Below, in pieces: positions 236 through 2,610 of a stretch of DNA of 16,066 nt. Source of the DNA: Candidatus Thorarchaeota archaeon (GTDB lineage: Archaea; Asgardarchaeota; Thorarchaeia; Thorarchaeales; Thorarchaeaceae); contig CP070761.1 in the NCBI GenBank assembly GCA_020348985.1, forward strand, positions 191,830-207,895, given 5' to 3'. Numbering within the stretch: the first letter of the stretch is position 1; each line of letters opens with the position of its first letter. The notes beneath the pieces are model-generated. The model was not told the DNA's origin, did no database searches, and was given only the letters and a program-made list of their open reading frames with translations. Both the position numbers and the translations under genes were made by a program.

Positions 236-619
236 ATGTTTGAACCAGGTTCTGCGGAACTGCAGGAGAAATTCAGAGAAATCATGGATGAGGCCACATC
301 TCTGTCAACCGGCGTCAAGGCATGGATGATTCTGTCAAAGGAAGGACTCCCAATTGCTCAAGCAGTCCCCGAAGGTCTAGAGGAAGCAGAGATGGCCGCG
401 ATGGCAGCAGCTATCTTAGGGGTTGCAGACTTGGCAGCCGAACGTATGGACCAAGGTCTACTCGAGGAGATTCTGCTCACGAATGAAGGTGGTCTGATGC
501 TCATCAAGAGTGCCGGAGAGGCAGCCATCCTCGTACTAGCTGCTGTTAAAACGATGAAACCAGGTTTGTTGGTTTACGCCGGGAAGACGGCGTGCGACAA
601 GATTGCCCCACTGCTCTAG
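236..619 (+). CDS. Roadblock/LC7 (MglB-like) domain protein
   Basis: Roadblock pattern GVKAWMILSKEGLPIA...MAAMAAAILGVA...LEEILLTNEGGLMLIKSAGEAAILVLAA...GLL. ATG 236 is preferred over TTG 221. The stop overlaps the S8 gene stop (616-619). Confidence 0.9.
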   Translation: MFEPGSAELQEKFREIMDEATSLSTGVKAWMILSKEGLPIAQAVPEGLEEAEMAAMAAAILGVADLAAERMDQGLLEEILLTNEGGLMLIKSAGEAAILVLAAVKTMKPGLLVYAGKTACDKIAPLL

Positions 620-2610
620 CTGGCTGTCCAACCGATCAGCCAATACACCGCTTGTAGGAGGAGTTTCGAGTTATCGTCAGACTGATATAGGCCGTGAAGT
701 GCCCAATTGTCTAGGAAGTAGTTTGTGCCAACTCCTATCACCCGTCCTCCATTTTCCCACTCGTTTCCAACCATAACAGTGCGCATCACCTCTAAATCCT
801 GATCGATCATCAGCTCAATAGAGGCCAACTCATATGCATTGCCGGTGTAGTTCATCGAACATCCCACGAAGTCGAACGAATCAACATCCTGTGTGACTCT
901 ATGTGATGCCAGTTTTGACACTAGTACTGTTGACGACACTCCCCCTATATGGATGACTATGGAAGGGATTGCGTCGTAGTTCATCGACATGTTGAATCGA
1001 CTTAGGAGCATATTGGCACCTTCGATGTCGATGCTATAATTGCTCAGACCTGCGACGAGAATCCCCCCGCCTTCTTTCCAGTAATTCTCGTATATATCAA
1101 GCTCTTCTGGAGTATAGCGCAGTGATCCATAATTGACAGCGGCGTCATCCACGATGATGCGATCCCAACTGCACGGGTCAACGATAAGGACTGCGTCATA
1201 GTTCTTTAGATTCTGAGCGCTCAGGTATGATCTTTCGGATATTTCCTCAACTGCAATGCCAACCTGAGTGATACGTTCGTAGAGTGCCCTGTACTGACCA
1301 TATATTGAATCCATCCACCAAGGTGTATGACTAATATCAAGGGCAATTCGTGCGAATGACACGGACAAATCAAGAGACAATCTTGACCTAATGTCTCTGT
1401 ACCCTGGTGCAACGAGCGTTATTAGAACCTGCAGCTCTTCAATGGGCAGAGAGGACAAAACCCTTACCCTCACCTTGAAACTGCCAGTCTGGTTGACAGA
1501 GACCAGATCCGCACTGCTCAGCCAAGATGCGCCTAGTCCTTGCAGAGAAATCTGGAAAGAAACATTCCTACTTGCAAAAACAGAGAACTCCAGAAAGTAC
1601 GAGGAATTGACGAACCAACGCTCAAATTCGTACGGGGCGTCAGTCGGTGTCATCCATGCGACCATGGGTAAGTCACCTTCCAGCGTTGAGTCACGCAGGA
1701 GCTTCTTTGCCTCTTCTAGATTTACAAGTCCAGAACCCACTTCCCAGGATTCTGAAGAGAGCGGGCTTGCGCTTGCCAAGAGCGTTGCTTTAATCATTCC
1801 AGGGGTCCATGACCAACCACTTAGCCTGCAAAAGGCAATAAGCTCGGCTGCAACGGCTGCTGCTTTTGGAGCGGCGAAGCTGGTTCCAAAGACGGCGCCT
1901 CCATTAATAATGTATGAACCCTGCGCGGATAGGTCTGGCTTTGCGGTTCGATTCCTCAGTGGTCCCCTTCCAGAAAAAGAATAAGGTTGTCCAATCTCGT
2001 CCACAGCCGCAACTGCGATCACCTCAGGAAAGACAGCAGGAGATTCAATCGAGCTGCCGGACACACCATTCTGGCCATTGTTTCCGACTGCTGCCGTGAT
2101 CATAACACCTTGACTGAATGCCCACTCTATTGTACTCCTTAGATGGTCGTTGTTGGATGGTGTACCTCCAATGCTGAGATTAATCACATCACAGTCCTGT
2201 TCACCGACCGCCCACCTGATGGCCTGGATAATGGCACTCTCAGAAGCAAAGTTGGTATCCGACACTACCTTGGCATTTATGATGACAGCATTAGGTGCAT
2301 TGCTCACGATGATCGAGGCAACATAAGTTCCATGAGGGGAATCATTGGGACTGCTATCATCTGTGGACTCGTCGGATTCTGAATAGCCAAAGCTCGAATT
2401 GATGAAGCTTTTCTCAGCAAGTATTAGTCCATCCAGAATGCCATCCTTCTCAATTCCAGAATCAATGACAGCAACCCTAACAGCGATGTCAGGCACAATG
2501 AGTGTGCGGGGAAGCACGACAATCGCCGTTCCCGTCGCAATCATGATCATGGTGGCTATTAGAATTGCAGTACCTCGCTTGGGACTACCAGGTATGTCCA
2601 TTTCATTCAT
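616..2610 (-). CDS. S8 (subtilisin-like) serine protease with N-terminal membrane anchor/signal and MBTPS1/Site-1-protease-like C-terminal region
   Basis: Intact triad and oxyanion motifs: VAVIDSG, HGTYVAS, AAVGNNG, GTSFAAP. Hydrophobic N-terminus ([19 protein letters not shown]). C-terminal alpha/beta domain RIALDISH...YDAVLIVDP...YTPEEL...GRVIGVG. Start probably ATG 2610 or 2601, not 2700. Confidence 0.9.
   Translation of the reverse strand: [664 protein letters not shown]

Follow-up and report, generated by a model that had tools for sequence, protein, structure and literature searches.

Architecture of the subtilase encoded at the locus

A 16,066-nucleotide stretch from a Candidatus Thorarchaeota archaeon (GenBank assembly GCA_020348985.1, contig CP070761.1, positions 191,830 to 207,895; hereafter the window, with positions counted from its first letter) carries on its minus strand a gene for a subtilase of peptidase family S8, in which the catalytic domain, a beta-sandwich and a GIFT domain succeed one another as they do in the eukaryotic Site-1 protease (S1P, the product of MBTPS1). 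The coding sequence most likely spans 616..2610 and specifies 664 residues, with an ATG at 2610 and the stop codon at 616-618. An upstream TTG at 2700 extends the open reading frame to 616-2700; we favor the ATG because homologs have approximately 666 residues and the Atlas record begins at residue 31, which is the position of that ATG in the 694-residue frame starting from the TTG, whose numbering we use throughout. An earlier sequence-only reading, which did not give the strand, had delimited an S1P-like region at 616-1800, a range that corresponds approximately to residues 301-694 and takes in the end of the S8 domain, the beta-sandwich and the alpha/beta domain, but stops short of the full minus-strand gene, which reaches 2610.

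From its N-terminus, the protein begins with a short tail (residues 31-44; 2569..2610), recognized from the sequence by the Lys-Arg pair beside the helix that follows it, and predicted by the positive-inside rule to be cytoplasmic. The helix itself (residues 45-63; 2512..2568; hydropathy 2.47 over 19 residues), a signal anchor, is the sole hydrophobic helix of the protein and is placed at residues 42-61 in the AlphaFold2 (AF2) model. There is no C-terminal helix, and the earlier claim of N-terminal anchoring is thus borne out. The Peptidase S8 domain (residues 72-335; 1696..2487; Pfam PF00082, E=3.5e-38) starts about 10 residues past the membrane helix and therefore leaves no space for a prodomain. 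It is succeeded by the beta-sandwich (residues 336-446; 1363..1695), which by position and structure is the counterpart of the ‘P-like’ subdomain of S1P, and by the GATase1-like GIFT domain (residues 447-694; 619..1362), two residues past which the protein stops. The GIFT domain bears the motifs cited in the sequence-only reading, and the strings quoted there are all present (e.g., RIALDISH at residues 451-458).

A motif check located the catalytic residues, namely Asp80 (codon 2461-2463), His123 (2332-2334), the oxyanion Asn207 (2080-2082) and the nucleophile Ser274 (1879-1881), all again on the minus strand. These four positions are invariant across 35 homologs. The protein thus displays the hallmarks of peptidase family S8, with the triad in the subtilisin order, the oxyanion Asn and the match to PF00082.

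The post-catalytic region shares its fold and domain order with S1P

In S1P, two further subdomains come after Peptidase S8, namely a beta-sandwich of non-canonical P-like type (479-616) and GIFT (617-998), the latter of which packs on the loops carrying the oxyanion Asn338 (PMC11231238). The AF2 model of residues 336-694 of the window protein has a predicted local distance difference test (pLDDT) score of 93.4, with the beta-sandwich at 88-95. What had been taken for a ‘beta-rich linker’ is indeed beta-rich but is no linker; in the model it folds as a beta-sandwich, with pLDDT values exceeding 90. A Foldseek search with this model recovered the human S1P-SPRING structures 8uw8_A and 9csd_A as the top matches (E=3.9e-15). 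In VIA-align, S1P was the sole chain spanning both post-catalytic domains (307 residues, root mean square deviation (rmsd) 3.0 Å, Z 20.1), with model residues 9-358 in register with S1P 478-875. The whole-protein model (pLDDT 87.3, predicted template modeling (TM) score 0.83) likewise retrieved 9csd_A (E=5e-34) and 8uw8_A (E=1e-33), with TM scores of 0.66-0.67 normalized by the query and 0.62-0.63 by the target. The next match, Vpr, was distant from these (E=7e-21, TM 0.36), and the subtilisins span the catalytic domain only. The cassette accordingly presents a sandwich at the P-like position, a GIFT domain and the three-subdomain arrangement of S1P, with the P-like assignment being one of structure and position only.

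Sequence profiles reach the same relationship at the level of the family. Searching 1.84 billion representatives with a Thorarchaeal post-catalytic profile yielded 453 matches, many of them in proteins of approximately 1000 residues with the S8 domain at about 150-450 followed by the beta-sandwich and GIFT module. A broader family profile constructed from 55 diverse beta-sandwich and GIFT modules matched human S1P (8uw8/8uwc) in hmmsearch over the full length of the GIFT domain (E=2.4e-10); the S1P residues in that alignment agree with the MBTPS1 strings cited in the sequence-only reading, and they align to the family profile in the register given there. For profile-profile comparisons with hhalign we used an MBTPS1 set fetched with a 79-residue S1P stretch and comprising metazoan sequences only. 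Against this set, the Thorarchaeal family gave a single set of 532 collinear columns through all three domains (probability 99.7, E=7e-26), the long-form archaeal family described below gave one collinear alignment of 566 columns (E=2e-50), and the post-catalytic regions on their own aligned over 270 columns from the beta-sandwich into the GIFT domain (probability 98.9, E=3.5e-17). At the family level, the sequence similarity to S1P thus exceeds chance by both hmmsearch (E=2.4e-10) and hhalign (E=3.5e-17), and the resemblance of the post-catalytic region to MBTPS1 that had been proposed holds up on these figures together with the top Foldseek match and the collinear cassette. Together, the fold, the domain order, the geometry and the profile-profile statistics make homology of the cassette with that of S1P well supported, with the structural side of this argument being drawn from predicted models.

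Several observations weigh against reading the protein as S1P-like, and they concern each of the domains in turn. The structural comparisons set a predicted model, and not an experimental one, against the experimental S1P structure. Taken alone, the GIFT part aligns in VIA-align with IFT52 at Z 24.0 and 23.2 (215 residues, rmsd 3.1 Å) and with OST48 at Z 20-21. It has the GATase1-like alpha/beta fold and the topology of the GIFT superfamily (IFT52, OST48, GldG, DUF4350), so that by itself it is generic and fits IFT52 at least as well as S1P. None of the MBTPS1-specific Pfam models (PF23001, PF23094 and PF23090) exceeded its gathering score; PF23090 (MBTPS1_4th) alone matched, alongside GATase1_like, with 13.6-15.2 bits where 27 are required. 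Across the 35 homologs, the sub-threshold Pfam matches were distributed over IFT52_GIFT (14), OST48_N (12), DUF4350 (9) and MBTPS1_4th (7). The Thorarchaeal post-catalytic profile, searched against the PDB sequences with hmmsearch, matched IFT52 (E=0.004) and STM1381, with S1P absent at E<=10; from the window protein or this Thorarchaeal profile, the similarity to S1P is not detectable by HMMER alone. Even the 55-module profile matched IFT52 more strongly (E=3e-13), in that case confined to the second half. The beta-sandwich (residues 336-446) matched no Pfam family, and, compared by itself with its MBTPS1 counterpart, gave no significant alignment (E=0.35, and E=0.039 with a probability of 1.3%). 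A hidden Markov model of the metazoan MBTPS1 post-catalytic region likewise found no match in the genome of the window, though this profile derives from closely similar sequences and is little informative. One outcome that would have told against the sequence-only reading, a match to generic GIFT or DUF4350 domains only, is thus seen for the GIFT domain in isolation and not for the tandem, over both domains of which S1P alone aligns.

The catalytic domain taken alone likewise shows no special affinity to MBTPS1. A PDB sequence search gave 93 bits between the S8 domain of the window protein and subtilisin BPN', with no S1P entry in the top 60 matches. Conversely, an MBTPS1 S8 profile reaches approximately 100 bits on Bacillus subtilisins, but only 33-61 bits across the S8 genes of the window's genome, with the window gene at 33. 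Both proteins therefore score higher against the Bacillus enzymes than against each other. Among the six S8 genes of the genome, the MBTPS1 S8 profile matches only the four that bear GIFT domains; the two that it misses carry large insertions.

These observations raise the alternative that S1P and the archaeal proteins assembled independently, each having gained a mobile beta-sandwich and GIFT module beside an ordinary S8A domain. The closeness of the GIFT domain alone to IFT52 and OST48, which is as great as or greater than that to S1P, and the lack of mutual affinity between the S8 domains beyond the generic S8A level are both in keeping with this. So are the Atlas structural neighbors of residues 337-694, which place the tandem in hypothetical proteins of Bacillota with no recorded S8 domain and in Chloroflexota M28 peptidases (773 residues). 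These predicted structures also speak against an exclusive bond with S1P, and suggest that the tandem may be a protease-accessory module common to several peptidase families and able to move between proteases. We nevertheless consider separate assembly unlikely: the order of the domains, their direct junction and the inter-domain geometry are all common to the two (whole-chain TM 0.66), hhalign recovers one collinear alignment across the three domains, and the cassette is fixed in the approximately 80 members checked, with no other solved S8 protein possessing it.

Comparison with other proteins sharing one or more of these domains further delimits the relationship. With S1P (PDB 8UW8, 9CSD; MEROPS S8A), the window protein has in common the succession of S8A, beta-sandwich and GIFT domains with the same predicted packing, collinear GIFT motifs, and membrane tethering that would, in the window protein as in S1P, leave the enzyme on the non-cytoplasmic side. 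S1P itself cleaves after RX(L/V/I)X motifs, is activated by SPRING and is inhibited by PF-429242. The window protein differs from S1P in lacking a signal peptide and the A/B prodomains, inhibitory and chaperone segments that S1P removes autocatalytically, and in being anchored by an N-terminal helix where S1P is a type-I protein with a C-terminal helix; these two differences, too, count against a close equivalence. The post-GIFT spacer and the long GIFT insertions of S1P are also lacking, the identity to S1P is about 15-19%, and the scores to the Pfam MBTPS1 models are below threshold, as noted above. We know of no SPRING partner in archaea. IFT52, OST48/Wbp1 and bacterial GldG/DUF4350 proteins have the same fold as the window GIFT domain, but comprise no protease and no preceding beta-sandwich arranged in this way. 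Conversely, Tk-SP of Thermococcus kodakarensis (3AFG) and Vpr (8JMW) likewise combine S8A with an appended C-terminal beta-rich domain, but lack GIFT, and their whole-chain TM scores to the window protein are 0.34-0.36 versus 0.66 for S1P.

A widespread family with long and short forms

In all of the approximately 80 family members checked, the beta-sandwich and GIFT module starts within a few residues of the S8 domain. Long forms make up the majority. They begin with a signal-like helix and a pro-region of 110-190 residues, continue with the cassette and a spacer of 130-480 residues that is immunoglobulin (Ig)-like in some members, and close with a C-terminal membrane helix, located 20-50 residues before the terminus, and a short tail; MBTPS1 is laid out in the same way. 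Named members come from Thorarchaeota (many), Helarchaeota, Heimdallarchaeota (two), Odinarchaeota, Njordarchaeia and one Zixibacteria; a search for longer homologous proteins gave only Thorarchaeal ones. We gauged prevalence in 301 genomes, all sampled from the window's own phylum. The beta-sandwich profile matches 234 of these, including 74 of the 90 high-quality genomes, and is represented in 61 of 70 genera and 22 of 30 families; the combined beta-sandwich and GIFT profile matches 295 of the 301 at E<=1e-10, a count in which GIFT-only proteins are included. The Zixibacteria member, together with the occurrence of the module in bacterial proteins, indicates that the family is not exclusive to the Asgard archaea.

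A search for related loci across genome contigs gave just three, labelled Nitrososphaerota at NCBI. Two metagenomic contigs titled ‘uncultured Nitrososphaerota archaeon’ (CAZVPA010000013.1 and CAZWPQ010000004.1) thus give matches, and their label seems at odds with an Asgard-phylum placement. We rejected their reading as non-Asgard metagenome-assembled genomes, as the contig positions and scores are identical to those of two genomes in the Asgard sample (G100 and G021), with which they appear to be one and the same.

The genome of the window, a single 3.16-Mb contig, itself carries members of both kinds among its six S8 genes, four of which have GIFT domains. The long paralog P0263 (965 residues; minus strand, at about 1,247,629-1,250,526 of the genome) has the complete topology of S1P: behind a signal peptide and a pro-region come the three domains of the cassette, then an Ig-like spacer, and finally a C-terminal membrane helix that ends in a short basic tail. 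By sequence, it matches Tk-SP best among the PDB entries (E=1e-49). In the language-model search of the Atlas, its own cluster is followed by nine clusters of eukaryotic MBTPS1, at 0.94. The equivalent search with the post-catalytic region of the window protein returned a plant MBTPS1 cluster first, at 0.86, which we treat only as a lead. A second short-form paralog of the Thor II type (704-residue frame; about 3,120,500-3,122,300) shares approximately 34% identity with the window protein over the post-catalytic region and is the best of the S8 genes of the genome against the MBTPS1 S8 profile (E=1.2e-16). A further S8 paralog (1489-residue frame; about 2,856,700-2,859,900), with a weak downstream GIFT match, has Asp in place of the oxyanion Asn (AAGDDGP) and Ala in place of the nucleophile Ser (TTAAS), and is, by these substitutions, likely a pseudo-protease.

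Other long Asgard forms, like P0263, share the cassette (profile E-values down to 1e-34) and the intact catalytic residues with the window protein; these include P0157 and P0111 of Heimdallarchaeota, P0176 of Helarchaeota, P0096 of Odinarchaeota and P0075 of Njordarchaeia. They differ from it in possessing the signal peptide, pro-region, spacer and C-terminal helix with a short tail, none of which is found in the window gene. The short clade to which the latter belongs unites the Thor I and Thor II types and the Zixibacteria protein with members fused to polytopic membrane domains. Three metagenomic proteins of this clade (P0074, P0103 and P0130) carry the S8-beta-GIFT cassette as a C-terminal fusion to a membrane domain of 7-12 helices.

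Phylogenetic placement of MBTPS1

Trees were inferred with FastTree (92 rows) and with IQ-TREE under LG+C20 with posterior mean site frequencies (PMSF; 40 rows, 677 columns), with MBTPS1 represented by metazoan sequences only. In both, MBTPS1 groups with P0263 of Thorarchaeota, P0157 of Heimdallarchaeota and a group containing the Helarchaeal proteins, with support of 98 and 96, and this clade lies apart from the short-form clade of the window gene. The window gene is thus probably a derived relative within the S1P-like family and not the best counterpart of S1P, and P0263 resembles human S1P more closely than the window gene does.

This topology invites the proposal that S1P is a true eukaryotic signature protein (ESP), inherited vertically from a long-form type-I protease of the Asgard archaea, with the window gene being a Thorarchaeota-specific short offshoot. 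Besides the grouping of MBTPS1 with P0263, P0157 and the Helarchaeal group in both trees, the near-ubiquity of the cassette in the sampled Asgard phylum, the signal peptide, pro-region, C-terminal helix and short tail common to the long forms and MBTPS1, and the MBTPS1 clusters that are the nearest Atlas neighbors of P0263 all argue for it. Against these stand the MBTPS1 stem of 2.0-2.4 substitutions per site, which joins other long branches and brings a risk of long-branch attraction, and an approximately unbiased (AU) test that does not reject the union of MBTPS1 with the short-form clade (p=0.144). Moreover, the two non-GIFT S8 genes of the genome, used as outgroups in the FastTree analysis, fell beside MBTPS1 within its clade, making that rooting unreliable; the IQ-TREE analysis was performed without them. 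The metazoan restriction of the MBTPS1 set, the restriction of the prevalence sample to the Asgard phylum and the existence of the Zixibacteria member further temper the proposal, and we hold vertical descent of S1P from the Asgard long forms as a tentative possibility.

The sequence-only reading had put forward the window protein itself as a prokaryotic relative of S1P and a candidate ESP. The first part stands insofar as the cassette is homologous and widespread in the Asgard archaea, and, given the collinear cassette and its wide spread, a candidate eukaryotic-signature reading is reasonable. However, the long forms appear to be the better counterparts, and the family is not Asgard-exclusive. 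As to a grouping of the catalytic domain of the window protein with MBTPS1, the S8 domain alone shows no special affinity and the trees place MBTPS1 with the long forms, subject to the AU result.

A predicted membrane-proximal protease

The reading that best accounts for these observations, to which we assign a probability of about 0.8, is that the window gene encodes a membrane-tethered, active S8-beta-GIFT subtilase with an S1P-like cassette, belonging to a short Thorarchaeal branch and functioning in limited proteolysis. We predict a subtilisin-type serine endopeptidase that would be tethered by the single N-terminal helix with the enzyme facing outward. The beta-sandwich and GIFT domains are predicted to pack on the S8 domain as in the mature (C-form) S1P ectodomain. 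By analogy with S1P, the GIFT domain would then brace the loops carrying the oxyanion Asn and gate access to the active site. As a representative of a short branch that has neither prodomain nor C-terminal extension nor C-terminal anchor, the protein would fold without a covalent prodomain; subtilases that do so are unusual. Most likely, it would act near the membrane by limited proteolysis of membrane or surface proteins, whether to mature, shed or turn them over.

A more mundane possibility is that the protein is an ordinary degradative subtilase of the cell surface serving nutrition, in which the GIFT domain and beta-sandwich merely stabilize the enzyme or bind glycans or surfaces, with no S1P-like role in regulatory limited proteolysis. 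The six S8 genes of this genome, four of them with GIFT domains, are what is typically seen where extracellular proteases have expanded, and broad-specificity subtilisins are the enzymes to which the catalytic domain is closest. The tight tethering, at approximately 10 residues from the helix, is less suited to such a role, as are a single-copy locus that is strictly conserved, neighbors included, across Thorarchaeia at 40-45% identity and the S1P-like bracing predicted for the active-site region. We accordingly regard a purely degradative function as doubtful, and favor limited proteolysis near the membrane.

Genomic neighborhood and evolutionary implications

A divergent intergenic region of 119 bp (2611..2729), delimited from the sequence, separates the subtilase from a head-to-head gene for a CPBP/Rce1-like intramembrane protease on the plus strand (2730..3551; Pfam PF02517, E=1.4e-17). 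On the other side lies a convergent Roadblock/LC7 gene (221..619, plus strand; Pfam PF03259, E=1.5e-11), whose end overlaps the stop codon of the subtilase. Both neighbors are retained in three Thorarchaeal contigs, where the subtilases are 40-45% identical, within more than 10 syntenic genes. A second gene with a faint Robl_LC7 match is found a few genes off in the contigs of the Thorarchaeal homologs.

The head-to-head arrangement evokes a pair in which the subtilase and the divergent CPBP/Rce1-like protease carry out two-step membrane proteolysis analogous to that of S1P and S2P. The adjacency, over about 120 bp, is maintained in the three contigs despite a dodecin gene inserted nearby. However, with ten or more genes being syntenic, it may reflect mere general synteny, and CPBP proteases are not homologs of S2P (M50), leaving such a functional pairing improbable, more so even than separate assembly of the cassettes.

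S1P is treated as a eukaryotic enzyme, and its GIFT subdomain is regarded as unique among the proprotein convertases (PMC11231238). In our full-text literature searches, no paper connected S1P with the Asgard archaea. The presence of the S8-P-like-GIFT cassette in most of the sampled Asgard genomes hence supplies a concrete prokaryotic family in which to study the origin of S1P. This family should also be useful for dissecting the roles of the GIFT and P-like domains, and for understanding an enzyme that works without SPRING or, in the short form, without a prodomain; the small and simple archaeal proteins may serve as structural and biochemical models.

S1P controls the SREBP, ATF6, CREB3-family and lysosomal-enzyme pathways. 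In a more speculative scenario, which we rate marginally below vertical descent as such, S1P would be an Asgard-derived ESP. The last common ancestor of Asgard archaea and eukaryotes would already have possessed a type-I subtilase equipped with a prodomain, a P-like domain and a GIFT domain, represented today by long forms such as P0263, P0157 of Heimdallarchaeota and the Helarchaeal group, with the window gene being a streamlined Thorarchaeal version that lacks the prodomain and is possibly paired with the CPBP protease. If true, regulated intramembrane proteolysis would have had its luminal first-cut protease before the endoplasmic reticulum and the Golgi arose; and if the family is truly ancestral, a secretory-pathway processing protease would join the eukaryotic signature proteins of the Asgard archaea.

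Farther along the window, a 386-residue protein encoded on the minus strand at 6551-7711 shows a weak, partial match over approximately 50 residues to the gingipain-like Peptidase_C25 (E=2.4e-7), and the contigs of one homolog carry at the corresponding place a 387-residue gene with no recorded Pfam family. On the plus strand, at 10857-13429, an FAD-linked oxidase (FAD_binding_4 and FAD-oxidase_C) is paired with a CCG/4Fe-4S protein, a combination resembling GlcD/GlcF or lactate dehydrogenase. This pair is followed by a myo-inositol-1-phosphate synthase-like gene at 14611-15687.

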